From sequence record OQ503491.1: a stretch of DNA of 42,869 nt; one strand, written 5' to 3'. Below are positions 1-33,319 of the stretch, piece after piece. The stretch comes from Acinetobacter phage vB_AbaA_LLY. Both the position numbers and the translations under genes were made by a program. The notes beneath the pieces were generated by a model. It was not told the DNA's origin, did no database searches, and was given only the letters and a program-made list of their open reading frames with translations. The first letter of the stretch is position 1, and every line of letters begins with the position of its first letter.

Positions 1-2
1 CC

Positions 3-2600
3 ATGGAAGTAGCAGTAGACACAAGCAAGGCGAACCGATTAGCCGCACTGTCCGGATTCGTACAGGACTTCGGCGTAGGTTTTGAGGAAGGAATCAAAGA
101 GAACGCGGCGGCCGCCACAGTGCGCGGCGCGATGGATGCTCAGGGTGCGGTGGACGCGATGGCCTCCAAGGACGAGGCTGTACAGAAGCAGAACATCTTC
201 GTACGTGAAGCCTACCAGGACGGCTACGTATCCGCTGCTGCATACGACTCGCTAGCCAAGTGGCGCACAGACAGTATCGCCCGGGCTAAGAAAGCTGCCG
301 AGGCGGGGCTGACTGACGAGGAGTTCCAGCAGCAAGAGCAAGAGCACGTCCAGTCTATGTCGGACAAGCTCGGTATGTATCTACCGGATATGTCCAAGCA
401 GTCCGCTACTACCATACTGCAGCAGCTCCGTGCTACCAGCATGGCGAACTATACAGCCTTCCAGAAAGGTCGAGCTGCGTTTGCCCTGGCACAGGCTGAC
501 CGTGCCCTAGACCGCGGCCTTAGCTCGTCCAGTGATGAGTTCTATCAGCGCCTACAAGCAGGGCAGGGCGCCGCTGCGCAGATGTCTATCAAGACCGGTT
601 TAGACAGTATTCTGGCCGCCGAGCACCTGGACAAGAGCAAGAAGCTGGACCGGGCCAAGCGGTATCTGGTCAGTGTAGCGCAGCAGACCCAGGATCCGCT
701 GGTAATCAACCAGCTGCAGGAAATGGCCACTAAGGAACTTGGCGTCAACTCTGTAGACGTCAACGCGGCGCTGTATCAGGAGTTCAAGCGCGCCGGTGCT
801 CAGATTGAGACCCAAGCCCGTTTCGAAATCTCCGATGAAATCCAGTCTCTTGAGGGGCAGACCCCAGAGCAGCAGGAACAGACAATGGCGCGTATTCGTA
901 GTCGCGTCATTGAGCTGTCGGCATCGGACGTGCTCAGCGCCGGGACTAGCATGGAGTTCTGGAACAAGGCCCAGACCATTCGTGAGAAGGCAGCAGACGC
1001 CCAGGCATTGCGCACGGCGATTACTGGGAATATGCCAAGCTCCACTCTGGCTGGGATGTACAAAGGCGACCTGGGTAAGGCTCGCAATGAGCTGCTCAAG
1101 AGCTTTCCGGACACCCCGGAAGGGAACCTGCAGCTGCTGGCATACGGAAGCAATAGCAAGGATGCGTGGGCCGTCAACGAGGCGCACAAGCGTATGTCTT
1201 CGGACATGGCACGTACACTGACTACCCTGGACCAACTCGGTGAGGACGGCGAGGTTTCCCGTGAGAACGTCAGCAGCATCAACCTGTGGGCCCAGGCTTA
1301 TAGCACCAGTACGGACTTAGGTAAGATGGCACTGCTGTCTGAGGTCCCGTCTGAGTGGCAGGGGGTGGTGCAGAAAGCTATTGCACAAAACCCAAGTAAC
1401 GCCAGCAACACTATCTTGGATGACCTGCGCCGCCAGGCGCGTAACAAGGCCAGTGGTCGCTACAGCAACATCCAAAGTAACCCCACGGACAAGATGGTGG
1501 ACCCTAGCGGTACCAGCAACTGGTTCAGTTTCTTTGGCGATGCCGACGCGCAGCGCCAGGAAGCGCGCGCTGCTATGGAGGAGGAGTACCGTTATACGTA
1601 CAGCCGCAACCCAGAAGCTCTGGTGGGTAAAGATGCCGAGGACATCAACACGATGCTCAAGGGTAACATCCAAGCCCGTAAGCTAGAGCTGGAAATTGCT
1701 GGTACGCCGAGGCACGTGTATCTGCCTGCCGGAACCTCTCTGCAGTCTATCATGGGCGACTACAAGGGCGACCAGGAGCAGTTCAAGGCTACGCTGCAAC
1801 GGCAGATTCAAAACCAAGTACAGGCTATCACTGACCCCAGCAACATGGAACGTGTAGTGGTGCAGGCCGCCACAGCAGGCAACGCAGGTCAGAACATGAC
1901 CGTAACCGTGTTCGACAAGAAGGGCACATTCCAGACTATGTCTGTGAACCTTCGCGACGTTCAGGCTACTGCACAAGCTGCGTATGATTCAGCACTGGCT
2001 GGAGAGATGAAGATTGGTAGCGAGCAAGTGGGTGTACGTCCCGCTACCTTCTACGACCACGATAACGGACGTGCTGTCAGCGTACAGGTCAACGGCCGTA
2101 ACGCGGTGGGGCTAGAGCCGTCGCTGTTTAGTGATATCCTCGCCACCACTATGAAGTTCGAAGGGTTCCGAGAAGGCAAGGGCAAGGGTAGCATAGGCTT
2201 TGGTCTGCACGTTAACTCTGGCATGCCAGTTCCTCAGAAAGTAACCATTGACGACGGTATCAGTATCCTCAAATCCTCTATGGAGAAGCAGTACGTTCCG
2301 AACGCGCAGAAGCAACTCAAGGGGCAGGGTTTGAATGCCTCCGACGAGGCGTTAAAGGTTATGGTGGACCTGAACTATCATGGCGGTAACGGTAGCTCTG
2401 GCCCAGTAGCAGAGGCGGTGGCTCAGGTACGCAAGGCTGCTAAGTCCCCGGTGGGGGCGTATCAGTACCCTGTATCTGAGGCCCAGGGTAGGGCTTGGCA
2501 AGCGCTGCGGAATACCCCGGCGTACAAGCAGGCCCAACCTGAGCGCAAGAAGTACCTGGAACAAAACCTACGTGATTGGCTCTTTGAGGCAACACACTAA
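3..2600 (+). CDS. Internal virion (ejection) protein with C-terminal lysozyme-like domain; 5' end truncated by window start
   Basis: Long ORF in the structural block. The C-terminal segment TMKFEGFREGKGKGSIGFGLHVN matches the T4-lysozyme/GH24 pattern EG..(Y/F)..(D/G)..G..(T/S)IG(F/I)G(H), as in phiKMV gp36-type proteins. Position is upstream of the large gp16-like protein. Confidence 0.65.
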   Translation: MEVAVDTSKANRLAALSGFVQDFGVGFEEGIKENAAAATVRGAMDAQGAVDAMASKDEAVQKQNIFVREAYQDGYVSAAAYDSLAKWRTDSIARAKKAAEAGLTDEEFQQQEQEHVQSMSDKLGMYLPDMSKQSATTILQQLRATSMANYTAFQKGRAAFALAQADRALDRGLSSSSDEFYQRLQAGQGAAAQMSIKTGLDSILAAEHLDKSKKLDRAKRYLVSVAQQTQDPLVINQLQEMATKELGVNSVDVNAALYQEFKRAGAQIETQARFEISDEIQSLEGQTPEQQEQTMARIRSRVIELSASDVLSAGTSMEFWNKAQTIREKAADAQALRTAITGNMPSSTLAGMYKGDLGKARNELLKSFPDTPEGNLQLLAYGSNSKDAWAVNEAHKRMSSDMARTLTTLDQLGEDGEVSRENVSSINLWAQAYSTSTDLGKMALLSEVPSEWQGVVQKAIAQNPSNASNTILDDLRRQARNKASGRYSNIQSNPTDKMVDPSGTSNWFSFFGDADAQRQEARAAMEEEYRYTYSRNPEALVGKDAEDINTMLKGNIQARKLELEIAGTPRHVYLPAGTSLQSIMGDYKGDQEQFKATLQRQIQNQVQAITDPSNMERVVVQAATAGNAGQNMTVTVFDKKGTFQTMSVNLRDVQATAQAAYDSALAGEMKIGSEQVGVRPATFYDHDNGRAVSVQVNGRNAVGLEPSLFSDILATTMKFEGFREGKGKGSIGFGLHVNSGMPVPQKVTIDDGISILKSSMEKQYVPNAQKQLKGQGLNASDEALKVMVDLNYHGGNGSSGPVAEAVAQVRKAAKSPVGAYQYPVSEAQGRAWQALRNTPAYKQAQPERKKYLEQNLRDWLFEATH

Positions 2601-2603
2601 CTA

Positions 2604-2621
2604 GAGGCCCTCCGGGGCCTC
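2604..2621 (+). terminator. GC-rich hairpin (GAGGCCC-tccg-GGGCCTC) between internal virion protein genes; possible terminator or RNA-processing site
   Basis: Perfect 7-bp stem with a 4-nt loop, followed by cccttatcaaaattctttt. The T tract is not immediately adjacent to the stem. Confidence 0.25.
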
Positions 2622-2650
2622 CCCTTATCAAAATTCTTTTAGGAGATATT

Positions 2651-5600
2651 ATGGCTCAGTTTCTGAACCAAGAACCGAATCCACAGGAAAAGGATTCTGC
2701 TAAGGGCGCAACACTTAAACCTGCGCCTACGCGCGTAGATTGGAACGATGCCGGAGATAACGGCTTAAATGCACTGGAACGTGCCTCCTTACTGACGCAG
2801 GCCAAGACCCCAGCTACTACAGCCGGGGAAAGCTTTGCATCGGGTATGGGCAACAGCATCATCGCCGCAGCTATCCGCAAGGCCTCTGCCCCCGCATTTG
2901 ACCGGGACCAGAACTTTAATGCCAAGCAGACGCTGAGCAGCGATACACGGGCTAAGCTGTACGCCCCAAATCAGGAAGAGATTGAGTACCTGCACGACTC
3001 GGTGTCAGTCGAGGACTATAACTACCGCATGCAGCAGATGCTTGAGCAGCGTGACCGTGACCGCTTAATGGCTGACAACACAGTAGCCGGGTTCGCGGGT
3101 ATGTTGGTAGGAGATTCCCCGTTCATCCTGGCCCCGATGTCTGCTGCTGGCATTGCTGGGCGCGCTGGCTTAGCTGTACGCACGGCTATCCGCGCCGCTG
3201 ACGTAGGCTCTGCATTCTATGCACAGGACCAACTGGGTCAGTCTGCTGCTGTAACTGCACTGGTAGCAGGCGTAGCCGGATTAGACCAGCTCTGGGATAT
3301 GTCTAGGGCGGCTAAAGCTGCCGCTAAGGCTCGTACTGGGCGTGAGCCTATGTTCGACCCAGAAGCGCCTACAACTCGTACAGCTAGGGATGCTAATGTT
3401 ACCGGAGTAGGAGAGGGGGAGGAAATTCTCACTAAGACACTGGATGAAAGCATCCAAGTATCTAGAAACAATACCGCCTCCGTGAACATGAAAGCACAGC
3501 ACGTAGTTCAGTTCTTGAAGAAGTCTGGGCACTTGACAGCAGGCCAGAAGGCTATTCTGGACACGTTGGGCGATGCTGTAAATGACATTGATTTTAAACT
3601 GGTAGCAGGCTCCGCAAACCGTAGCCGCTATACTTATGCACAACAAGATTTAGCTAAGCGAGGAGAGATATCTCTGCGCGCGCCTAAGCGAGCTAATGGC
3701 AGCACCTGGACTACAGCCGGGGACGCTCTGCGCGCTCTGGATGCGGATACAAGCAAGGTAGCCGTGCACGAACTGATTCACGCCGCCACTGCGCGCGCCG
3801 TTGACAGTAACCCCGAGATTGCTAAGCGCCTGGAGGAAGTGCGCGCTGTTATTGCAGCCGACTCCACCCTGACGCCGCGTATGCGGTATTATGCAAGTAA
3901 TGTACACGAGATGCTGGCAGGCTTAGGCGACAGCCCGGAGTGGGTTGAGCACCTGGCACGGACGCAATCCCCCACCGGTAAGAGCATGCTCCGCCAACTG
4001 GGCGAGTACATCATGAATGCCCTGGGCATCAAGGCCAAAGGTTCTGCCTTGGAGGATGTCCTGGATGCGTATGAGGACGCCGTTAAGTGGACAGCTAAGG
4101 ATTATGCAGACCAAGCTCAGAGCTTCCGTAGTGAGGCCTTCCAGGACCTGGCGGGCAGCACTACCCTCAACGAGGCTAAGGGTGCCCAAGCTATGCTGGA
4201 TGGCGCTAAGAAGAAGCTCGCTACTATGTTTGCCCTGTACGACAACATCGCTCAAGGCAATGAAGACTTGGCTAAACTACTAGTGTCGGACGCGTCCGCC
4301 GTAGGTGGCCGTCGCCCGTCTGTAGTGGACTTCAAGCGCAACCTCACTTTGGAGATGGACGCTAGCGCCAGCGTAGTGGAAGACGCTATCCTGGGCGCGT
4401 TGAAGGATAAGGGTGTAGGTTTCTCTGAGCGCTTCTTCCATAGGAGCAAGTTCCGAGCTGAGCGGGCTGCACTGGAAGACCGCCTGGGCAAGTACCTGGA
4501 TGCTGCTTATAGCGCCGACGTAAACGGGCGTCCTGTGCCTGTACCTGATGCAGAGATTGCCCCACTGGTAGACGCATACCGCAGGTCCGGGTGGGCTAGC
4601 AAGTGGCACGAGCATATGCTCAATGCCGGTCTAGTGGATGATGGTGCGTTGGTTAAATCCGACTACTATTTCCCGCGTCAGTACAGCTATGACAAGATGC
4701 GTCAAGGTATCGCACAGGGTAACACTCTGGACGACTACCGCGCCCTGTTCCGTTCCGCTCTGCGGGATGTATACCCCGGCATGGAATCCGAAACAGTACA
4801 GCGCGTTGCTAAGGAGATGGTTGACGGTATCTACAATGGCCGTGCCGGGCAATCTGGCCCTATGTGGAAGCAGCTGATTAACGGTATGGGTAACGACGAG
4901 GTCGTTATGGCTATGCGTAGCGCCGGTGTAGATGAGTCTGCAATCCAGAGCTTCCTGGCTGGTAACGTACGTGAATCCGGTAGCACATCCCCTGCGCGGA
5001 ACCTGCGCCAGCGTACTCGGTTCAATATGGACAAGGAGTATCTGGTGAATGGTAAGAGCATGCGCATGCAGGACCTGATGGATACTGACGTAGCCAAGGT
5101 TATGCACGGGTACACTAACCGTATGTCCGGCCGTGTAGGTATGGCCTACGCAGGCGTACAGGACCTGGGACAGCTCGCTAAGATGATTGATGAGTCTAAG
5201 CATGCACTGGCGGATTCCGCTAAGTGGGAGAAGACTGTCAATGACACCATCGACTTTATCCTGGGTGGGGCACCTGCTGACGCTGGGCAGCTTCCGGACT
5301 TGCTGCGTGCAGCGGGGAACATGGCGAACGCTACCATGCTTAAGAACTCCGGGCTGTATCAGCTGACTGATACTGCTCTGGCTATGAAGGAATTCGGTAT
5401 GGCTAGAGTGCTGCGTAGTATGCGTGACCAACCTTGGTTCAAGGAAGGTGCTGTAGCTATCAAGACTCCGGATATGGCTGCTCGTCTAGACATCGTGCTG
5501 CGGGGTAATATCCAGAAGGAGATGCGCTTCCGCTGGTTGAATACGTACGCCGACGATAACCTGGACCTGACCCGTCAGGCCTCTTGGTTCAACGTCACCC

Positions 5601-6349
5601 AGAACGTTGGGCAGGCTGCACGTCACGTCAACGGCATGAGTATGGTGCACCGGCTGCAGGTTAACCTGAACTCCGGTATTGTGGCGGATGAGCTTACGCA
5701 GATGTTCAAGGGTGATGCCGAGGCGTTTAAGCGTCTAGAGCGTTTCGGGCTTACCCGAGACGTTGCCGACCGGGCTATCGCCGCCAACAAGGCTAACCCG
5801 GGAGCTATGTTCCAGCCGGACCTGCAAATGCAAGTTGAGGTTGTGGGGACGCGTATGATGGACTACCTGGTACAGCAGGTTCGTACTGGCGAGACTTCGC
5901 ACTTTGCACAGTTCAACCCCATCGGCAAAGTCATTGTAGGGTACCAGAGCTTCGCACTAGCTGCCACTAACAAGATTCTGCGTAGAGAGCTGAACGATGC
6001 TGGGTGGATTGGTGTAGCCCATATTATGGCGTACCAGTTCCCATTGATGCTGCTGGCTACTATGGCCAAGCACGGCATGGACGGGAAGGACGTAGACACC
6101 CAGAAACTCATCGGCGAGTCCGTGATGGGTATGAGTGCCATTGGCGGTATATCCTTACTGCAGGATATCTTCCTGGGGAATTCTCCCCGACACTCGTTGG
6201 CGTCTATGGGTTACGTCACAGGACTGCTTGGGGCTGTGCAGAGCCTGGCTACCGGTAACATGGATATCAAGACCTTCACTAAGCAGGTACCGCTAATCCA
6301 GGAATTCGCACCTACGCGAGCTATCATCAATAACTTTGGAGACGACTAA
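2651..6349 (+). CDS. Large internal virion protein (T7 gp16 / phiKMV gp37-like ejection protein), 1232 aa
   Basis: Size and position: between the other internal virion protein and the tail fiber gene. Strong RBS AGGAG 8 nt upstream of the ATG. Confidence 0.65.
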   Translation: MAQFLNQEPNPQEKDSAKGATLKPAPTRVDWNDAGDNGLNALERASLLTQAKTPATTAGESFASGMGNSIIAAAIRKASAPAFDRDQNFNAKQTLSSDTRAKLYAPNQEEIEYLHDSVSVEDYNYRMQQMLEQRDRDRLMADNTVAGFAGMLVGDSPFILAPMSAAGIAGRAGLAVRTAIRAADVGSAFYAQDQLGQSAAVTALVAGVAGLDQLWDMSRAAKAAAKARTGREPMFDPEAPTTRTARDANVTGVGEGEEILTKTLDESIQVSRNNTASVNMKAQHVVQFLKKSGHLTAGQKAILDTLGDAVNDIDFKLVAGSANRSRYTYAQQDLAKRGEISLRAPKRANGSTWTTAGDALRALDADTSKVAVHELIHAATARAVDSNPEIAKRLEEVRAVIAADSTLTPRMRYYASNVHEMLAGLGDSPEWVEHLARTQSPTGKSMLRQLGEYIMNALGIKAKGSALEDVLDAYEDAVKWTAKDYADQAQSFRSEAFQDLAGSTTLNEAKGAQAMLDGAKKKLATMFALYDNIAQGNEDLAKLLVSDASAVGGRRPSVVDFKRNLTLEMDASASVVEDAILGALKDKGVGFSERFFHRSKFRAERAALEDRLGKYLDAAYSADVNGRPVPVPDAEIAPLVDAYRRSGWASKWHEHMLNAGLVDDGALVKSDYYFPRQYSYDKMRQGIAQGNTLDDYRALFRSALRDVYPGMESETVQRVAKEMVDGIYNGRAGQSGPMWKQLINGMGNDEVVMAMRSAGVDESAIQSFLAGNVRESGSTSPARNLRQRTRFNMDKEYLVNGKSMRMQDLMDTDVAKVMHGYTNRMSGRVGMAYAGVQDLGQLAKMIDESKHALADSAKWEKTVNDTIDFILGGAPADAGQLPDLLRAAGNMANATMLKNSGLYQLTDTALAMKEFGMARVLRSMRDQPWFKEGAVAIKTPDMAARLDIVLRGNIQKEMRFRWLNTYADDNLDLTRQASWFNVTQNVGQAARHVNGMSMVHRLQVNLNSGIVADELTQMFKGDAEAFKRLERFGLTRDVADRAIAANKANPGAMFQPDLQMQVEVVGTRMMDYLVQQVRTGETSHFAQFNPIGKVIVGYQSFALAATNKILRRELNDAGWIGVAHIMAYQFPLMLLATMAKHGMDGKDVDTQKLIGESVMGMSAIGGISLLQDIFLGNSPRHSLASMGYVTGLLGAVQSLATGNMDIKTFTKQVPLIQEFAPTRAIINNFGDD

Positions 6350-7274
6350 CGTGGCATTCAGCTGGCAAGAACAAATCAAGTCAGCTGGTACCCAGGATAT
6401 CCAGTGCGATATTGAGTATTTGGACAAGTCCTATATTCATGTATACCTAGACGGCGTGGAAACCACTGGGTACACCTGGACCAGCTCTACTAATATCAGG
6501 CTAAACACAGCCTTGGCAGCAAGCACGACTGTGCTACTAATCCGCAAGACAGAGCGGGAGTATCTGTACATTGAGTTCGCCAGTGGTTCTCCGTTCATCG
6601 AGGTAAACGTAGACTCCCAAAACACTCAGTTCTTGCACTTAGCGCAAGAGCTGGTGGAGGGTCGGGCTATCCCCGGATTCTACGGCACTATTAGCATGAA
6701 CGGGTACCGCATAACCGACTTAGCTAACCCAATCAACTCCCAGGATGCTACTACTAAGGCGTACGTCGATGCCGCTGATACCTTACTAGGGCAGCGCATT
6801 GACGCAGAGGCCGCTACGCGGAAGGCCGCTGACGATGCCTTGAGTATGCGTACGTCCGCTCTGGAGAACACCTTTATAAGCGGAGTGGAGACAGTAAGTT
6901 ACCCGTGGAGCACAGTATTGACAGCGGATACAGACGAAGTAACTCCGGGCCTAGCCTTCACTAAGGCGGTGGTGGAGCTTAACGGGGTTGGGCAGATTCG
7001 TGGCTACAGTTTCGAGATTGTAGATAATACGATACTGTTTGCAGAGACCCTCCCCGCCGGAACGGTTGTGGCTGCCCGACTGGGGGCCGACGTAACTGCG
7101 GGGGATGGCTTCGCCTCACAAGCATCCGTAGATTACTTGGCCGACTCCTTGGGAGATTTGGCGTATCTGGACAAGGCTGCAGCTGTATCTAACGCAACAG
7201 GCACAGGGGATGTAGTGGATAAATTTAATGCTCTACTGGCAGCGCTGCGCACTAGTGGGGTGCTAGGAACGTAA
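6336..7274 (+). CDS. Tail fiber/adaptor protein carrying a T7 gp17 N-terminal (tail-attachment) domain only, 312 aa
   Basis: N-terminal ~150 aa align by eye with the T7 gp17 N-terminal domain (FSWQEQ...YLDKSYIHVYLDGVE...YRITDLANPINSQDATTKAYVD). No long receptor-binding C-terminal domain. TTG/GTG start overlapping the upstream gene. Confidence 0.65.
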   Translation: METTNVAFSWQEQIKSAGTQDIQCDIEYLDKSYIHVYLDGVETTGYTWTSSTNIRLNTALAASTTVLLIRKTEREYLYIEFASGSPFIEVNVDSQNTQFLHLAQELVEGRAIPGFYGTISMNGYRITDLANPINSQDATTKAYVDAADTLLGQRIDAEAATRKAADDALSMRTSALENTFISGVETVSYPWSTVLTADTDEVTPGLAFTKAVVELNGVGQIRGYSFEIVDNTILFAETLPAGTVVAARLGADVTAGDGFASQASVDYLADSLGDLAYLDKAAAVSNATGTGDVVDKFNALLAALRTSGVLGT

Positions 7275-7285
7275 CAGGAGAAAAT

Positions 7286-7588
7286 ATGGCAGGGGCAGCT
7301 AAACGTAGTCGCCTCTCGGAGCTGCACCACATGTTCACCGAGGCCTTGATTGAAGAAATCAAGCAGTCCAAGGAAGATGAGGTGCCGCTCCCCGCCGCAG
7401 ATAAATCAGTTATCGCCAAGTTCTTGAAGGACAATGACATCACCGCGGACGCAGATTCCGAGGAGATGCAGGACCTTCGTGATGAATTCGATGACGAACT
7501 AGCGGCGCGCAGAGAGGCGCGTAAGCAAGAGATTCTAAATAAAGTTGGTGGTTCAGACTCTGAGGACTTACTAGAAGGAATTGTCTAA
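7286..7588 (+). CDS. Terminase small subunit (DNA maturase A) candidate, 100 aa, acidic
   Basis: Small acidic ORF immediately upstream of, and translationally coupled (ATGA overlap) to, the large terminase. Position equivalent to T7 gene 18. Confidence 0.5.
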   Translation: MAGAAKRSRLSELHHMFTEALIEEIKQSKEDEVPLPAADKSVIAKFLKDNDITADADSEEMQDLRDEFDDELAARREARKQEILNKVGGSDSEDLLEGIV

Positions 7589-8157
7589 TGATATCGGCGA
7601 AGACTGCGCGAAGACTGCGCATGCTCAACCAGAAACTTACTGGTTATAGTGTGAATCCGCGCAGTATCCCCAAAGAGGAGCGCGAGGATATCGCGATGAT
7701 GATGGCCGCCGCTCTAAGCGACTTCCGGGAATTTGCGTACATCGGTATGCGGTTCCTGGGCTTTACGCTCACGGACATGCAGGCCGACATTGCAGAGTAC
7801 ATGCAGAAGGGCCCTAGGAAGCGCATGGTGGCTGCGCAGCGTGGTGAGGCTAAGTCTACACTAGCTGCACTGTACGCCGTCTGGAGGCTCATACAGGACC
7901 AATCCTGTCGTATCCTGATTGTGTCCGGCGCGGAGAAGCAGGCGTCAGACGTAGCTAACTTAATCATTCGTATGCTGGAAACCTGGCCGCTGCTGTGCTA
8001 CTTGAAGGCCGACCCTACTCGTGGGGACCGTACTTCATTCGAAGGCTATGATGTCAACTGCGATCTGAAACCGCTGGACAAGTCCGCCAGCGTAGCCTGT
8101 GTAGGTATCACTGCATCCCTGCAGGGGAAGCGCGCGGACCTGCTGATTCCTGACGAT
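7588..8157 (+). CDS. Terminase large subunit, exon 1 (ends ...GKRADLLIPDD)
   Basis: Aligns with T7 gp19 ...TDMQADIAE(Y/F)M... through GKRADIIIADD. The ORF then hits TAA, the first nucleotides of the intron. Confidence 0.85.
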
Positions 8158-8501
8158 TAACATCATAGTCGTCATTAAACCCCTTGAATTCGGTGGAAAC
8201 CCAGACCGGGCAATACCGAGCGAAGCCTCAACTGAGGAACGTGTAACGACTATTCCGTAAGGAAGTACCAGCAAGTGCTGGGAAGCGGGGGGCCTTGACT
8301 TACTGGTCAAGTGAAGATATAGTCTACTCTGCATGGGAACATGCAGTATCTACTACAAGATTTGAGCGGTAGCCGTACTTACTCCAAGAGTACGTGCCGA
8401 TTTATCCCAGCCTCTGAGAACTTATCAGACGCAGGCAACCGTCGCTGGGGTAACAAGTAGTAGGTAGGGGGAGAGGTAGCGTCCTCCCTTTAATATACAG
8501 G
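8158..8501 (+). mobile_element. Group I self-splicing intron (ORF-less, 344 nt) in the terminase large subunit gene
   Basis: Joining 8157|8502 restores the T7 gp19-like sequence PDD|IETTKNGLTQTQREQLL (T7: ADD|[17 protein letters not shown]). Exon ends in U. P1: exon 5'-UGACGAU / intron IGS 5'-GUCGUCA with U·G at the splice site. Intron ends in G. Conserved R element GUAACGACUAUUCC and S element GAAGAUAUAGUCU are present, with a P8-like hairpin CTTGAC-ttactg-GTCAAG. Confidence 0.8.
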
Positions 8502-9788
8502 ATTGAGACCACCAAGAACGGTTTAACGCAAACCCAGCGTGAGCAGCTGCTGATGATTTCGAAAGACTTCGCAGCTATCTGTACGCACGGGGATACGCTG
8601 TACCTGGGTACACCACAGACCAAGGACAGTATCTATAAAACCCTGCCGGGACGTGGCTTCGAGGTCCGCGTGTGGCCGGGGCGCATTCCGTCTGTTGAAA
8701 TGGAAGAGCGATATGGAAGTACACTTGCTCCTTATATACTGGAGCTCATTGGGCGCGGCTATAAACGCACCGGCTTCGGCGTCGACGGGACGCTAGGCGA
8801 GAGCACGGACACCGGGCGCTACGACGAGGATGCACTGATTGAGAAGGAGCTGGACTTCGGTCCGGAAGGCTTCCAGCTGCAGTACATGCTCGACACCACC
8901 CTGTCAGACCAAATGCGTACGCGCATCAAGCTCTCGGATATGCTAGTTTACTCCGGTAGTCAGGATTCCTCCCCTGAGACGTTCTCCTACATTGCGGACC
9001 GCAGGTACCTGTACCAGCACGAGCATGAGGGGATTATGGGTCAGCAGATGTACTTCCCGGCATTCTACGGGGATATGCACCTGCCGTATCAGCATAAGGT
9101 GCTGGTGGTAGATCCGGCCGGCTGTCGCGGCGATGAAGTTTCATACGCTGCTGGTGGTGCTGCGAACTCGTACATTCACCTATTCTCAGTAGGTGGCTTC
9201 CAAGGAGGTATCAGCGAAGAGAACATTGATAAACTGATTGATCTGTGCGTAGAGTTAGACATCCCGGACATGGTGGTGGAGAGCAACATGGGGCACGGCA
9301 CCGTGTCTATGCTTATTCTGAACCGGTTACGGGAGCGGCGTCTCGTCGGTATTGGTGTACGGGACCTGAACAACTCCACGCAGAAAGAGCGTCGTATCAT
9401 CGACACAATCAGCCCAGTTACTCGTCGTCACCGCCTGGTGGTGCATGAGCGTGCTATTCACGACGATATCAGCACCTGTATGGCGTACTCACGCGATAGG
9501 CGTTGGCTGTACTCTGCGTTCGCGCAGTTGTCCGGTATCACGTACGACCGCGGTAGCCTGGCGAAGGATGACCGAGCAGATGCAATCGCCATGATGGTGG
9601 CTACGCTGAACGGGCATCTGGTGGAAGATGAGAAAGTAGTAGCTGAGCGTGAGTCTGAGAAGATGGCTCGGGCCTTCATTGAGAATCCCCTGGATTGGGC
9701 ACAGAATAAAGTGTCTAAGGGGCTCCGGGGTGTAGCTGCACGGTTACAGAACCGGGGCAGAGGTAAACAACATAGAGGAAGAAGATAA
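8502..9788 (+). CDS. Terminase large subunit, exon 2
   Basis: ...REQLLMISKDFAAICTHGDTLYLGTPQT aligns with T7 gp19 [17 protein letters not shown]...VIYLGTPQT. The C-terminal nuclease region is conserved. Confidence 0.85.
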   Translation: METTKNGLTQTQREQLLMISKDFAAICTHGDTLYLGTPQTKDSIYKTLPGRGFEVRVWPGRIPSVEMEERYGSTLAPYILELIGRGYKRTGFGVDGTLGESTDTGRYDEDALIEKELDFGPEGFQLQYMLDTTLSDQMRTRIKLSDMLVYSGSQDSSPETFSYIADRRYLYQHEHEGIMGQQMYFPAFYGDMHLPYQHKVLVVDPAGCRGDEVSYAAGGAANSYIHLFSVGGFQGGISEENIDKLIDLCVELDIPDMVVESNMGHGTVSMLILNRLRERRLVGIGVRDLNNSTQKERRIIDTISPVTRRHRLVVHERAIHDDISTCMAYSRDRRWLYSAFAQLSGITYDRGSLAKDDRADAIAMMVATLNGHLVEDEKVVAERESEKMARAFIENPLDWAQNKVSKGLRGVAARLQNRGRGKQHRGRR

Positions 9789-10330
9789 TGGCATTTGCAA
9801 AAGCGACACTAGCAAAGCGCCAGGCAGTACGTGACGCTGCCATTGAGTTAGATAAGGCCGTGACTCTTGCACACGACACAGGGCCGCTGTTGGCATTAGG
9901 TCCAGCTGTAGATGCAGCAGGAGAAGCACTTGTGTCTGCCCTGGCTGATACCGGTTCAGCTATCCCGGATACTCAGGTTATTGTTAGCAACGGCGCTACG
10001 GGTAAGGTAACTAACAGTACTGGTACACAGAACATTACCGGCACTTTACAGGTGCGGGACGGGGCATTAAAGCAAGTAGTACTGCCTGCAGCCACTGCAA
10101 TGGTCAGTAATACAGCCGAAGTGACTATTGCTAACAGTGCTAATAACAAAACCGTAACAGGTTCCGCTGTAGTAGCTAAAGGCGCAGTGTCCCGCGTAGC
10201 AGCACCAGACACGGCCGCTATCGTTACTAACGACCAAGCGCTGACCGGAGTAACTCCCACAGGCACCTTCACCAATACCGTTACCTTTGCAGTGACCGGC
10301 GGTGTTATTACTGGCATCACCCTCTCCTAA
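9788..10330 (+). CDS. Hypothetical protein (Thr/Val/Gly/Ala-rich, 180 aa)
   Basis: ATG overlaps the terminase stop (TAATGG). N-terminus MAFAKATLAKRQ is paralogous to the next ORF's MAIAKATPAQQQ. Confidence 0.4.
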   Translation: MAFAKATLAKRQAVRDAAIELDKAVTLAHDTGPLLALGPAVDAAGEALVSALADTGSAIPDTQVIVSNGATGKVTNSTGTQNITGTLQVRDGALKQVVLPAATAMVSNTAEVTIANSANNKTVTGSAVVAKGAVSRVAAPDTAAIVTNDQALTGVTPTGTFTNTVTFAVTGGVITGITLS

Positions 10331-10347
10331 CTTATAAGGAATATATT

Positions 10348-10530
10348 ATGGCAATTGCAAAAGCAACCCCAGCGCAACAGCAGGAGCTGCTGTGTCAGCT
10401 GAACATTCTCGGTAAGGACCTTTATGCTATCCTTACGCAGCCGCAGAACGTGGCCCAGACTGGTGCTGCCTTCGATACCAAGCTTACTGCACTGGAAGAT
10501 GCAGTAAACAAAGTGAGGGCCGCTAGCTAA
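10348..10530 (+). CDS. Hypothetical small protein (60 aa), N-terminal paralog of the preceding ORF
   Basis: Good RBS (AAGGAATAT...ATG). Shares the MA(F/I)AKAT N-terminus with ORF 9788. Confidence 0.35.
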   Translation: MAIAKATPAQQQELLCQLNILGKDLYAILTQPQNVAQTGAAFDTKLTALEDAVNKVRAAS

Positions 10531-10934
10531 TGCGTAAACTGGTCGCTGGGTTGCTGCTCGCGGTTACTCTGACTGGTTGCTCGGCGACCTCTGCACTCAC
10601 CGGCCTAGTTGGTTCTAAGCCGGATGTATCTGCTCAGGTTGGTGCCGAGAACACCAAACAAACCGTTGGCTTGAATAACAAGGTGGACTCCAGCACCACC
10701 AACAAAACTGATGTACAGGATTCTAACGTAGGCACTTTGGACACGTCCAGTAAGAAGCAGGTGCAAACTATTAGCACCGGGACAATTCAGGCAGAGCGCC
10801 TGCAGGTGGTTAATAATGATAGTTACAGTCTTATCCTCGCCGGATTAGCTGGGGCCAGTATTCCCCTGGTCTTCCTAGTGGTCATTCTGGTGATTCGTAA
10901 GCTGTTCAGGAAGAAGGGGCAGCAGGATGATTAA
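10530..10934 (+). CDS. Putative unimolecular spanin (u-spanin-like): N-terminal lipoprotein signal plus C-terminal transmembrane anchor
   Basis: Signal peptide with lipobox LTG|C (MRKLVAGLLLAVTLTGC). C-terminal TMD LILAGLAGASIPLVFLVVILVI followed by basic RKLFRKKG. Located in the lysis cassette just upstream of the holin and SAR endolysin. Confidence 0.5.
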   Translation: MRKLVAGLLLAVTLTGCSATSALTGLVGSKPDVSAQVGAENTKQTVGLNNKVDSSTTNKTDVQDSNVGTLDTSSKKQVQTISTGTIQAERLQVVNNDSYSLILAGLAGASIPLVFLVVILVIRKLFRKKGQQDD

Positions 10935-11178
10935 GGTAGGGGACATGGTTGGGTCGGACCTCGCTACCCGGGCAGGTGCAGCAGTTACCGGCGCTACGGT
11001 ATCAGGAGGTTGGTTGGCAGAGTTAATGAGCTGGAACTGGAGCACTATCAGCTTCATCACTGCGACTGTGTGTGCAGTGCTAACCCTGGCGTGGAATGCG
11101 TACTACAAACGACGTACATTCAAGCTCCTAGAGGAGCAGGCACGTAAGGGGATTATTAAATATGAGTTTAAGGACTAA
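10927..11178 (+). CDS. Holin (putative pinholin), 83 aa
   Basis: Small membrane protein with a hydrophobic segment STISFITATVCAVLTLAW and a charged C-terminus. Overlaps the spanin candidate and the SAR endolysin start. Confidence 0.5.
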   Translation: MIKVGDMVGSDLATRAGAAVTGATVSGGWLAELMSWNWSTISFITATVCAVLTLAWNAYYKRRTFKLLEEQARKGIIKYEFKD

Positions 11179-11773
11179 GGTTATTGCGGCCCTCACGGGG
11201 GCCACTATGCTTGGCGGCGCCATTACCGGAGTGGTTCAGCACAACGAGGGGTTGAGCCTTACCGCCTATAAAGATAGTGTCGGGGTCCCTACAATCTGCT
11301 ACGGAGAGACAAAGGGCGTTAAAATGGGCCAGAGAGCCACGCTGAGCGATTGTCAGAAGCAACTGATAGAATCAGCAGGGGCACATGCAAAGGCTCTTGA
11401 CGGGCTTCCTATGCAGCTCTCTGACGTAGCTCTGGTTGGGTCTGTAGACTTCATTTATAACGTAGGCGTAGCTGGCTTCAACGGCAGTGCTGTGAAGCGG
11501 CACCTCAAGAACCTAGATTATGCAGCGGCAGGAAAGGCCGTACTGGACTGGCGCTATATTAGCAAGTACCAGCAGAAGTCCCCCGGCATCGGTTGGGTGT
11601 ACAAGGGCAGCAACCGCTGGACCTTCGACTGCTCTCAGTATATTAACGGGCAGCGCAATAAAGTGTGCTGGGGCCTATGGGAGCGCAGACAGTGGCAGAG
11701 CAAGGCTATTGGGAATCAGTACAAGAATGTAAATGCTGCAGTGGCAGCTCTTACTAAGACAGGGGGGAGGTAA
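11162..11773 (+). CDS. SAR endolysin (GH24 lysozyme family) with N-terminal signal-arrest-release domain
   Basis: Catalytic region EGLSLTAYKDSVGVPTICYGET matches the lambda R/P21/T4-lysozyme E-D-T motif. The N-terminus KVIAALTGATMLGGAITGVV is a weakly hydrophobic Gly/Ala-rich SAR-type TMD. Confidence 0.8.
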   Translation: MSLRTKVIAALTGATMLGGAITGVVQHNEGLSLTAYKDSVGVPTICYGETKGVKMGQRATLSDCQKQLIESAGAHAKALDGLPMQLSDVALVGSVDFIYNVGVAGFNGSAVKRHLKNLDYAAAGKAVLDWRYISKYQQKSPGIGWVYKGSNRWTFDCSQYINGQRNKVCWGLWERRQWQSKAIGNQYKNVNAAVAALTKTGGR

Positions 11774-13729
11774 ATGGCGTTAATTAGATTAGTAGCCCCA
11801 GAGCGGGTGTTCTCCGACTTGGCGAGCATGGTGGCATATCCAAACTTTCAGGTACAGGACAAGATTATCCTGCTGGGCAGCGCCGGTGGGGACTTCACCT
11901 TTACTACTGCTGCGTCGGTAGTGGATAACGGGACTGTGTTTGCTGTGCCGGGTGGGTACCTGCTCCGTAAATTCGTGGGTCCGGCATACAGCTCCTGGTT
12001 CAGCAACTGGGCAGGTATAGTCACGTTCATGAGTGCACCTAATAGGCACCTGATTGTGGACACGGTTCTGCAGGCCACGAGTGTGCTAAACATCAAAAGC
12101 AACTCTACTCTAGAGTTTACCGATACCGGAAGAATACTACCGGACGCCGCGGTTGCACGTCAAGTGCTTAATATTATCGGCTCTGCGCCCTCGGCGTTCG
12201 TACCGTTAGCAGCGGATGCCGCGGCGGGCAGCAAAGTCATTACGGTGGCTGCTGGGGCTTTGTCTGCGGTAAAAGGTACGTACTTGTATCTTCGCTCTAA
12301 CAAGCTGTGTAATGGTGGTCCTAACACCTACGGTGTAAAGATTTCCCAGATTAGGAAAGTGGTGGGGGTTAGCACCTCCGGTGGCGTCACCAGTATTCGA
12401 CTGGATAAAGCGCTGCACTATAACTACTACCTGTCTGATGCCGCGGAAGTAGGTATCCCGACAATGGTGGAGAACGTAACCTTAGTATCCCCGTACATCA
12501 ACGAGTTCGGCTACGACGATTTGAACCGGTTCTTTACTATCGGTATCTCTGCCAACTTTGCCGCGGACTTGCACATTCAGGACGGGGTTATTATTGGCAA
12601 CAAACGCCCAGGGGCTTCTGATATAGAAGGGCGTAGTGCTATTAAGTTCAATAACTGCGTAGACAGCACCGTTAAGGGTACGTACTTCTACAACATCGGA
12701 TGGTACGGAGTGGAGGTGCTCGGCTGCTCAGAGGACACGGAAGTACACGATATCCACGCTATGGACGTACGCCACGCAATCTCTCTGAACTGGCAGAGCA
12801 CTGCAGACGGGGACAAATGGGGAGAGCCTATAGAGTTCTTAGGCGTTAACTGCGAAGCCTACAGCACAACCCATGCTGGGTTTGATACTCATGACATTGG
12901 TAAGCGTGTGAAGTTCGTTCGCTGCGTTTCATACGACAGTGCTGACGATGGATTCCAATCGCGCACTAATGGGGTAGAGTACTTGAACTGTCGAGCTTAT
13001 CGTGCAGCTATGGACGGGTTCGCCTCCAGCACCGGTGTAGCCTTCCCTATCTATAGGGAGTGCCTAGCTTATGACAACGTACGCTCTGGCTTTAACTGCT
13101 CGTACGGCGGTGGCTACGTTTATGACTGCGAGGCTCACGGTAGCCGGAATGGTGTGCGAATCAACGGGGGCCGTGTTAAGGGTGGTCGGTACACCCGCAA
13201 CTCCGGCTCTCACATCTTCGTCACTAAGGATGTAGCTGAGACAGCGCAGACATCCCTCGAGATTGATGGCGTGAGCATGCGCCACGACGGTACCGGAAGA
13301 GCTGTGTACTTCCACGGCACTATGGGCATTGACCCTACCCTGGTATCTATGTCCAATAACGACATGACCGGCCACGGTTTGTCTTGGGCATTACTGAGCG
13401 GCTACACTACGCAGCCTACGCCCCCGCGCATGTCCAGGAACTTGCTGGACGACACAGGCATTCGCGGAGTGGCTACTCTGGTTGCTGGTGAGGCTACAGT
13501 CAATGCACGTGTACGCGGAAACTTTGGCAGCGGAGCTACCTCCTTCAAGTGGGTGTCTGAGGTTAAGTTGACGCGGTTGACCTTTCCCTCTAGTGCTGGG
13601 GCCTTGACGGTTACTAGCGTAGCTCAGAACCGGGATGTGCCTACACCTAATCCGGACCTAAACAGCTTCGTGATTAGGAGCAGTAACGCAGCGGACGTAT
13701 CCCAGGTAGCCTGGGAGGTGTATCTCTAA
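11774..13729 (+). CDS. Tailspike / capsule depolymerase-like protein (651 aa), lacks a T7 gp17-type N-terminal anchor
   Basis: Large ORF at the genome end after the lysis cassette, with repetitive beta-strand-like composition (G/N/S/T/V-rich). Starts with ATG overlapping the endolysin stop (TAAATG). Position equals the second receptor-binding protein of KP34-like phages (inference). Confidence 0.55.
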   Translation: MALIRLVAPERVFSDLASMVAYPNFQVQDKIILLGSAGGDFTFTTAASVVDNGTVFAVPGGYLLRKFVGPAYSSWFSNWAGIVTFMSAPNRHLIVDTVLQATSVLNIKSNSTLEFTDTGRILPDAAVARQVLNIIGSAPSAFVPLAADAAAGSKVITVAAGALSAVKGTYLYLRSNKLCNGGPNTYGVKISQIRKVVGVSTSGGVTSIRLDKALHYNYYLSDAAEVGIPTMVENVTLVSPYINEFGYDDLNRFFTIGISANFAADLHIQDGVIIGNKRPGASDIEGRSAIKFNNCVDSTVKGTYFYNIGWYGVEVLGCSEDTEVHDIHAMDVRHAISLNWQSTADGDKWGEPIEFLGVNCEAYSTTHAGFDTHDIGKRVKFVRCVSYDSADDGFQSRTNGVEYLNCRAYRAAMDGFASSTGVAFPIYRECLAYDNVRSGFNCSYGGGYVYDCEAHGSRNGVRINGGRVKGGRYTRNSGSHIFVTKDVAETAQTSLEIDGVSMRHDGTGRAVYFHGTMGIDPTLVSMSNNDMTGHGLSWALLSGYTTQPTPPRMSRNLLDDTGIRGVATLVAGEATVNARVRGNFGSGATSFKWVSEVKLTRLTFPSSAGALTVTSVAQNRDVPTPNPDLNSFVIRSSNAADVSQVAWEVYL

Positions 13730-31527: not shown

Positions 31528-33319
31528 ATGATTCACGCACTGAATACGGTTGTAGTATCAGAGGAAGCACTGGTGAAACGCCAGCTGGAGCTTGAAGAGG
31601 CCTATAAGATTCGCGGAATCGAGCGGGCACGTAAGCTGATTACGGACGCATTGCAGAACGGTGGGATTATGAACCTGCCGATGACGCAGCGTATGCTCAC
31701 CTCGGCATATGAGGTGGCTGCTGCCGCTATCGATGAGATGCGAAATGTCAAAGCCCCGGGCATTGGTGGGAAGTACCGCCGGTTCTTGCGCTTAGTCCCC
31801 TTGGATGTCCTGACCACCCTGAGCCTGTGCACAATGTTTGAGGCATTCAGCGTCGCCCCCGGCGAGTCCGCTAGTCGCCGCCAGACTGCACAGGCGGTAA
31901 TGTCCGCACTGGGCCGGAACGTACAATCGGAGCTGCTGGCACTGCAGTTACGCAACGTAGCCCCGGCGTACATGGACCGTGTATACGAGTACCTCACAGA
32001 GCGTCGTACGAAGTCCCCTACGCACATCCTGCGTACGCTCCGTGCCAGTGCCGAGAACGTGCACTATGGGCACGAGCCTTGGACCAATGCCCAGAACATC
32101 TCCGTAGGGCGTCTGCTGTGTGCCGCAGTGTTTGAGACGGGCCTGTTCCAGTGGAAGAACTGTAGCGGTAATCTGAGCATGCTATACCCCGCAGACAACG
32201 TTATGGAAGCATTCCAGCAGTTAGTGGAATCTGCCGACACTGTGACGATGAAGCCGCCTATGCTGGTACCGCCGGTGCGGCACACTACTCTGTGGGATGG
32301 TGGGTACCTTACCCCTATCGACAATCGCGGTACCTATCATAATTCTCACATTGACCGCGCGCGTCTCCGCGAAGTAGCGGAAGCATTTAAGTCCGCGGAC
32401 GGAATCAAGAAGGCGCTTAATAAGGCACAGGAAACCCCATACCGCATTAATAAGCGCATACTGGAACTGGTGCAAGAAGCACGGGCCCTGGGTGTTGGGA
32501 TAGGCATGCCTCGCTCAGTACCAGAGCCGAAACCGGAGTGGTATCTGGACGGGGTTCCGAAAGAGAACTACACCGAGGAAGAGCTTGACCGATTCGGTGA
32601 GTGGAAGACGCGCATGTCTCTATGGTATAGCGCTGACCGTAAGCGTGTATCGCAACTACGCAGCCTTCTGACTACGTTGGAAATGGCGGAGGAATTCAAA
32701 GATGAGAAAGCCTTGTACTTCCCGACTTGTGTGGACTGGCGTTACCGCCTGTACTTCAAGTCCTCGCTGCACCCCCAAGGTTCGGATTTGCAGAAAGCCC
32801 TTCTTGAGTTTGGCAGAGGAAAACCTCTGGGTGAGCGGGGACTATTCTGGCTCAAGGTACACGTCGCCACATGCTTTGGTTATGACAAAACCTTATTCGA
32901 AGACCGCGCAGCTTGGGTTGATGCGAACTTTGCAGCGCTCGGAGAGCTTGTGGTTTCACCGTTTGATTGCCCTGCTTTTGCCGAGGCAGACAGTCCCTGG
33001 TGTTTTCTGGCCGCCGCTATCGACCTGGTTAATGCTGTGCGTTCTGGATGCCCAGAAGAGTATATTAGCCGAATCCCGGTGGCTATGGACGCTACAAACT
33101 CAGGTGGACAACATCTCTCAGCGCTTCTGAGAGACCCTGTGGGCGGTCGTCTGACGAACCTGTACTGGGAGGGTAACGATAAGAAAGCGGACCTGTACAT
33201 GGACGTGAAGCGCCGTACAGACGAGAAGGTGATACTGGACCTGGACAAGGAGGATTTCGTTATCCAGAGCACGTACTGGAGAGAGAACGAAATCACCCGC
33301 AGCATGACCAAAAGACCGT
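31528..33319 (+). CDS. Single-subunit phage RNA polymerase, exon 1 (ends ...ITRSMTKRP + first nt of a Ser codon)
   Basis: T7-RNAP-like throughout. The ORF runs to the conserved TKR(S/P)(V/S)MT motif, then a TAA within the intron. Confidence 0.8.

Follow-up and report, generated by a model that had tools for sequence, protein, structure and literature searches.

The closest described systems are the lysis cassettes of the KP34-like phages. A single-protein spanin, a factor that disrupts the outer membrane when infection ends, is common to all KP34-like phages of Klebsiella. The gene order spanin, holin, endolysin was reported by Eriksson et al. (2015, PMC4411677) for the phages KP34, SU503, SU552A, NTUH-K2044-K1-1 and F19, where the three genes encode a unimolecular spanin, a pinholin of 83 residues and a SAR (signal-anchor-release) endolysin. 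The order in phiKMV is holin, endolysin, Rz, Rz1, and this contrast was used as an argument for a KP34 genus (PMC4411677). The cassette of u-spanin, pinholin and SAR endolysin is one of the traits on which the proposal of the genus "Kp34likevirus", now Drulisvirus, was built. KP34-like phages find wide use as candidates for therapy against Klebsiella with the K1 or another capsule type.

Kongari et al. (2018, PMC6139136, Table 5) placed such proteins in the T1 gp11 family, which has 28 members, including those of KP34, F19, NTUH-K2044-K1-1 and LIMElight. Nearly all members of this family are accompanied by a pinholin and a SAR endolysin, and a periplasmic Cys is present in none of the 58 u-spanins (PMC6139136). 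T1 gp11, the prototype of the u-spanins, complements the lysis defect of lambda RzRz1, and the exchange of its lipobox for AWAC keeps the function (PMC6139136). The u-spanin arrangement and its contrast with phiKMV were published in 2015 and 2018 (PMC4411677, PMC6139136), so that the feature analyzed below is already known. As a discovery the u-spanin carries little weight; the T1 gp11 family already includes it.

The DNA analyzed here is a stretch of 42,869 bp, referred to as the window. Our main reading, to which we give a probability of roughly nine in ten, is that the open reading frame (ORF) at 10530-10934 on the + strand codes for a unimolecular spanin belonging to the T1 gp11 family, the last-acting component of the u-spanin, pinholin and SAR endolysin cassette of a Klebsiella Drulisvirus (KP34-like) podophage. 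This reading draws on the topology signals, the homology to gp11, the cassette context and the absence of a two-component spanin, all of which were observed in this analysis.

Genome Context

The first 25 kb of the window are about 90% identical to Drulisvirus genomes such as pKP-M212-2.1 and Phi_K2044. From its sequence, the window is assigned to a KP34-like podophage (Autographiviridae, Slopekvirinae, Drulisvirus) with predicted K1-capsule specificity. All gene-sized ORFs are located on the + strand. Positions 1-13729 hold the late genes for structure, packaging and lysis, and the early region comes after them. The window appears to comprise the whole of a Drulisvirus genome, represented in circularly permuted form, and its length matches the 42-45 kb of its relatives.

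Drulisvirus-like or T1-like sequence was also found in the records of Acinetobacter phage vB_AbaP_Indie, Listeria phages LM 4-11-1 and LM 4-14-1, and Campylobacter phage A113. Such unlikely hosts suggest mislabelled or contaminated entries.

The u-Spanin Gene and the Topology of Its Product

The u-spanin gene (10530-10934, +) was delimited from the ORF list and the sequence; it has an ATG start and encodes 134 amino acids plus a stop codon. The full sequence of the protein is MRKLVAGLLLAVTLTGCSATSALTGLVGSKPDVSAQVGAENTKQTVGLNNKVDSSTTNKTDVQDSNVGTLDTSSKKQVQTISTGTIQAERLQVVNNDSYSLILAGLAGASIPLVFLVVILVIRKLFRKKGQQDD. The first-pass annotation had described a 134-aa protein with the lipobox LTGC, a single C-terminal transmembrane domain (TMD) and a basic tail, and this description is borne out by the ORF, the hydropathy profile and the Pfam LPAM_1 match.

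The lipoprotein signal peptide (aa 1-16), together with the lipid-acceptor Cys17, is encoded by positions 10530-10580 (+) and is recognized by the lipobox, the Ser at +2, the match to LPAM_1 and the invariant Cys. The n-region MRK is basic and the h-region hydrophobic and uncharged; they are followed by the lipobox L14-T-G-C17 (10569-10580, +), after which Ser18 stands at +2. The score of LPAM_1, the lipoprotein lipid attachment site, passes narrowly (20.3 bits, cut-off 20), and no other Pfam family was matched at an E-value limit of 0.1. According to the sorting rule, the protein would be directed to the outer membrane, as Ser18 takes the +2 position and the Lol-avoidance Asp is absent from it.

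The periplasmic linker domain (aa 18-99, 10581-10826, +) was delimited by composition and conservation. Its 82 residues are polar, rich in Ser, Thr, Val, Gln and Asn, and include no Cys; the sole Cys of the mature protein is the lipid acceptor. The C-terminal TMD, approximately aa 100-122 (SLILAGLAGASIPLVFLVVILVI; 10827-10895, +), is supported by hydropathy, by a helix in the AlphaFold models and by the family alignment. It is the single strong TMD of the protein; its Kyte-Doolittle hydropathy, averaged over 19 aa, peaks at 2.66 (aa 104-122), and the mean over aa 100-122 is 2.69. The chain ends in the tail RKLFRKKGQQDD (10896-10931, +), assigned to the cytoplasm and basic by charge count, with five K/R against two D/E.

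On its 5′ side, the ATG of the u-spanin gene overlaps by 1 nt (TAATG) the stop codon of a conserved 60-aa ORF (10348-10530, +; PHROG 7375), which is coupled to the spanin gene through this overlap. Upstream of it lies a conserved 180-aa ORF (9788-10330, +; PHROG 9732) that weakly matches a family of virion structural proteins. These two ORFs, located between the terminase and u-spanin genes, are homologues of KP34 gp52 and gp53.

Homology and Conservation

The likeness to the unimolecular spanins of the T1 gp11 type, claimed earlier on the grounds of topology, extends to the sequence. In BLASTP, the protein and T1 gp11 (gene 11 from NC_005833) share 42% identity over 125 of the 134 residues (E 3e-26). 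This value places it in the gp11 family under the rule of Kongari et al. (PMC6139136), which sets 40% identity over 40% of the length as the minimum for a u-spanin family. Both by sequence and by predicted topology, the 134-aa protein belongs to the T1 gp11 family. It is also matched by PHROG 1804, 'Rz-like spanin' (E 6.2e-52).

In tblastn searches, the protein was found at full length and 97-100% amino acid identity in about 245 phage records, and at approximately 35-56% identity in hundreds of T1-like siphophages as well as in Pectobacterium and Dickeya podophages. Many of the matched records carry the names 'U-spanin', 'putative unimolecular spanin' or 'Rz-like spanin'. The identical 134-aa protein is present on 416 public contigs, and its GenBank names are 'U-spanin' or 'spanin'. 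The DNA of the cassette region is 92-96% identical to more than 200 Klebsiella phage records. Since 97-100% amino acid identity is kept in about 245 records, while the cassette DNA of most records is no more than 90-95% identical, the ORF is no chance ORF, and the comparison of sequences shows strong purifying conservation of the u-spanin.

The naming of this one protein in public records varies widely: U-spanin, spanin, Rz-like spanin, RzlA, 'outer membrane lipoprotein SlyB' (JGI) and hypothetical protein were all encountered.

The HMMER search of 1.84 billion cluster representatives recovered a compact family of 49 clusters, and the family alignment comprises 38 full-length members. The lipobox Cys17 is invariant in all 38. 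The motif AQVGAENTKQ (aa 34-44) is conserved in the family, with Q36 and G38 invariant, and N41, K43, Q44, G47 and A88 are at least 90% conserved in the same alignment. The C-terminal TMD is found in 36 of the 38 members, the two exceptions looking like frameshifted C-termini, and the tail is net positive in 33. None of the members has Asp at +2 of the lipobox Cys picked by a regular expression; in five of them, this expression took an earlier, non-aligned Cys.

The Lysis Cassette and the Downstream Gene

The small holin and the SAR GH24 endolysin that the first-pass annotation had placed directly downstream of the u-spanin were both confirmed, the former by PF04971 and PHROG 20, the latter by PF00959, the structure 3hde, the SAR TMD and the catalytic motif. 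The pinholin-type holin of 83 aa (10927-11178, +) was identified by these two matches and by hydropathy, and its gene starts within the u-spanin gene, with an overlap of 8 nt. The match to Pfam PF04971 (Bacteriophage P21 holin S) is a narrow pass at 26.5 bits against a cut-off of 26, and that to the PHROG 20 holin has an E-value of 5.4e-17. TMD1 (aa 16-33) is rich in Gly and Ala and weakly hydrophobic, TMD2 (aa 38-58) is stronger, and the C-terminal tail is charged. This predicted TMD layout matches the pinholin pattern.

The beginning of the holin ORF (10927-10947, +) holds two in-frame Met codons, M1 and M7 (MIKVGDM...), each with a purine-rich Shine-Dalgarno-like stretch ahead of it. These codons may represent a dual-start holin/antiholin arrangement such as that of S21 71/68. 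The residues added by the M1 start include one Lys and one Asp, so that the net charge argument is weak.

The SAR GH24 endolysin of 203 aa (11162-11773, +) is encoded by a gene that overlaps the holin gene by 17 nt. It matches PF00959 Phage_lysozyme with an E-value of 4.7e-21. Hydropathy reveals an N-terminal SAR-type TMD at aa 7-25, rich in Gly and Ala (11180-11236, +), and the motif of the catalytic triad, E29-x8-D38-x5-T44, is located at 11246-11293 (+). The best solved relative is 3hde, the full-length SAR endolysin of phage 21 (E 7.7e-11), and the alignment begins at residue 2, so that the SAR segment is included.

The next gene (11774-13729, +) encodes a K1-lyase tailspike of 651 aa, recognized by Pfam K1-lyase_N, Rider and C and by Beta_helix, and matched over its full length by PHROG 18512. 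Through this tailspike, Klebsiella with the K1 capsule is the predicted target, as in NTUH-K2044-K1-1. The tailspike gene starts one base past the endolysin stop, and therefore no space for Rz/Rz1 is left downstream of the endolysin.

Search for a Two-Component Spanin

The first-pass annotation had stated that no embedded or overlapped Rz1-like ORF is evident downstream of the endolysin; the position of the tailspike gene agrees with this, and the six-frame lipobox scans were negative. In the strict scan, covering every ATG, GTG and TTG start in six frames of the whole window, the sole match on the + strand was 10530-10934, and the remaining matches were antisense chance ORFs on the minus strand. 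The relaxed scan gave three further candidates on the + strand, 796-1221, 32702-33130 and 41379-41516, which were rejected for poor or over-long signals and their location inside unrelated large genes. None of the enclosing genes has an N-terminal TMD.

An i-spanin, that is, an N-terminal TMD followed by about 90 or more periplasmic residues, was sought among the + strand ORFs of at least 50 aa, and none was found. On the + strand, an N-terminal TMD was seen in three ORFs only: the SAR endolysin, the u-spanin lipoprotein and one of 54 aa. The other frames of the cassette, in which an embedded Rz1 was looked for, contain a single lipobox-like ORF (11520-11732, +; 70 aa), an alternative frame in the endolysin gene with 'SVGC' at residues 24-27. 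A hydrophobic signal is lacking. Of four close relatives, three (Phi_K2044, pKP-M212-2.1 and KpV475) have ACG instead of its ATG, the frame is interrupted by an in-frame stop in the Bucovirus Buco, and the ORF was rejected as an o-spanin and regarded as a chance ORF. Because no other lipoprotein-like ORF is present on the coding strand, the window, as judged from its reading frames, holds no i-/o-spanin pair (Rz/Rz1). The lipobox and N-terminal TMD scans thus leave the u-spanin reading of the first-pass annotation standing.

Alternative Readings of the Lipoprotein

A first alternative takes the protein for the Rz-like i-spanin of a two-component system, the o-spanin partner of which would be located elsewhere or overlooked. 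The name 'Rz-like spanin' in PHROG 1804 and in many RefSeq records speaks for such a reading, but this label is a generic functional name and makes no call on topology. The i-spanins have an N-terminal TMD and no lipobox, whereas here the lipobox is N-terminal and the TMD is C-terminal. As the coding strand offers no second credible lipoprotein ORF, whether embedded, overlapped or separate, and the one lipobox-like alternative-frame ORF of the cassette is not conserved, we consider this reading the least probable of all, with hardly any chance of being correct.

Scarcely more probable is a lipoprotein of another role. It could block a receptor and so act in superinfection exclusion, as do T5 Llp and the Cor proteins of T1-like phages, or it could serve as an ordinary envelope lipoprotein. 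The lipoprotein signal is compatible with this reading, as is the automatic JGI name already mentioned. Against this stands the homology to gp11, the spanin function of which was tested, together with the translational coupling of the gene to the holin and endolysin genes. The Pfam match, in turn, concerns the lipid-attachment site only, and a C-terminal inner-membrane anchor is not known from exclusion lipoproteins. An equally slight chance is given to a protein that has the u-spanin topology and acts mainly in lysis timing, as a tether or an antiholin-like partner of the pinholin, rather than in membrane fusion. The unusual place of the gene upstream of the holin gene, with the 8-nt overlap, could be taken in this sense, the spanin gene of T1 being the last of its cassette. 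However, the gene order of lysis cassettes varies widely with no change of function, the homology to gp11 spans the entire periplasmic domain, and nothing points to an interaction with the holin. An example of such variation is T4, where the spanin genes are located away from the holin and endolysin genes (PMC6139136).

Proposed Mechanism

The preferred reading remains a unimolecular spanin that would fuse the membranes. We infer the spanin function of the KP34-type protein from its homology to T1 gp11; no direct experimental test of a KP34-type spanin was found in the literature. The mechanism outlined below takes as its template the work on T1 gp11 and phage 21 (PMC6139136, PMC9636201), and the lipidation, outer-membrane sorting, oligomerisation and fusion of the u-spanin are proposed by analogy with it.

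The precursor would be exported by the Sec pathway, lipidated at Cys17 and cleaved by signal peptidase II. The lipid anchor would then be moved to the outer membrane in a Lol-dependent manner, consistent with Ser at +2, while the C-terminal TMD would stay in the inner membrane with the basic tail in the cytoplasm. In this state, one chain of about 118 residues would thread the peptidoglycan mesh and tie both membranes. Once triggered, the pinholin would depolarise the inner membrane, upon which the SAR endolysin would exit the bilayer, refold and degrade the peptidoglycan. The freed spanin molecules could then diffuse, oligomerise via their periplasmic domains, draw the membranes together and fuse the inner with the outer one. 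Such fusion would remove the outer membrane, the last barrier to the release of virions.

The Periplasmic Domain

AlphaFold2 gave models of the u-spanin with a mean pLDDT of 57.5 from the single sequence and 62.6 from an alignment of 35 sequences. In both of them, only two helices, 2-26 and 98-130, are confident, the latter with a pLDDT of 80-89, and aa 30-90 are modelled as coil with a pLDDT below 50. The search of solved structures with the u-spanin gave no match, even at E = 1. The periplasmic domain of the T1 gp11 family is reported to consist of a short helix and at least four beta-strands, and this strand-rich domain is absent from both monomer models, which at such confidence speak neither for nor against it. 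The alternating hydrophobic and polar runs of the periplasmic part (VQTISTGTIQAERLQVV) look strand-like to the eye. The coil model is compatible with a domain that would become ordered only upon oligomerisation, but does not demonstrate one.

The similarity of the three cassette proteins to their T1 counterparts is graded, with 42% identity for the spanin, a weak match for the holin and 28% identity for the endolysin. From this gradation, together with the lack of a monomer fold by AlphaFold, comes a joint proposal that we regard as tentative and, taken as a whole, somewhat improbable. According to it, the module of u-spanin, pinholin and SAR endolysin would have been swapped whole between T1-like siphophages and Slopekvirinae podophages and rearranged, the spanin gene taking the first place and becoming coupled in translation to the pinholin gene. 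In addition, the periplasmic domain of the family would be disordered as a monomer and form a beta-sheet fusogen only when oligomeric. Both parts, the module exchange and the monomer disorder, prolong published views and overturn none. As u-spanins are without a solved structure, the small and highly conserved KP34-type member would be a sensible choice for structural studies of how beta-sheet fusogens merge membranes.

A Group I Intron in the Large Terminase Gene

Upstream of the lysis cassette, the large terminase gene (terL, 7588-9788, +) is split between codons 190 and 191 by an insert of 344 bp (8158-8501) that carries no ORF. The limits of the insert were set by alignment to the uninterrupted large terminase gene of Phi_K2044, which gives exon 1 at 7588-8157 and exon 2 at 8502-9788. 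The group I intron model of Rfam, RF00028, scores 68.2 bits (gathering score 50; E 2.4e-15) at positions 8097-8346. The 5′ splice junction is preceded by U, the insert has G at its 3′ end, and the joining of the exons restores ...LLIPDD/IETTKN... in the terminase (the slash marks the junction). By these signatures, the insert is classified as a group I intron, and the ligated exons are predicted to read ...CCTGACGAT/ATTGAGACC....

Most Drulisvirus genomes are without this intron. Related copies were found in vB_KpnP_ZX22, ZH4 and Henu2_3, where they are annotated only as a split terminase CDS. The copy of vB_KpnP_ZX22 has an HNH endonuclease ORF inside, and terL is annotated there as two separate CDS.

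Comparison with Known Systems

In phiKMV and lambda, the Rz i-spanin and the Rz1 o-spanin presumably do the same job as the u-spanin described here, connecting the inner and outer membranes and fusing them after the breakdown of the peptidoglycan. The phiKMV-like phages are morphological and genomic cousins of the KP34-like phages, and both groups have a pinholin and a SAR endolysin (PMC4411677). The phiKMV and lambda spanins consist of two proteins, which have coiled-coil helices and form disulfide-linked dimers; their genes, nested or overlapping, come after that of the endolysin. In contrast, a single protein without periplasmic Cys is encoded here, upstream of the holin, and no embedded lipoprotein ORF was found.

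T1 (Drexlerviridae) is a siphovirus and the phage studied here is a podovirus. T1 gp11 is close to the u-spanin in length (133 vs 134 aa), in lipobox (LSGC vs LTGC) and in the Ser at +2. Both proteins lack periplasmic Cys, have a C-terminal TMD and a basic tail, and are partnered by a small holin and a SAR-type lysozyme. The match between the endolysins includes the N-terminus (E 8e-14), whereas the holins are barely alignable. The order of the T1 genes is holin, endolysin, spanin, compared with spanin, holin, endolysin here. The spanin function of T1 gp11 was shown by complementation, and that of the KP34-type protein is predicted from its sequence.

In Shigella phage Buco (Bucovirus, Slopekvirinae), the spanin, gp49, shares 77% identity by tblastn over query aa 17-112. 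The gene occupies the same place, after the homologues of KP34 gp52 and gp53 and before the holin and endolysin genes. The Buco spanin has 135 aa and a slightly longer signal peptide, and a gap of 68 nt separates its gene from the holin gene, in place of the overlap present here.

The closest counterparts are the spanins of the other drulisviruses, KP34 (gp54), NTUH-K2044-K1-1, F19, SU503, SU552A, KpV41, KpV475 and Phi_K2044, where the same gene is found in the same position, with the same length of 134 aa and the same cassette order. Past the start codon, four aligned Drulisvirus relatives agree with the protein described here at 132-133 of 133 residues, and the differences are a few conservative substitutions. 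The start codon in Phi_K2044 is GTG, compared with ATG here, and the u-spanins of phages SKP1, KA and KpnBHU6 are identical to that of the window.
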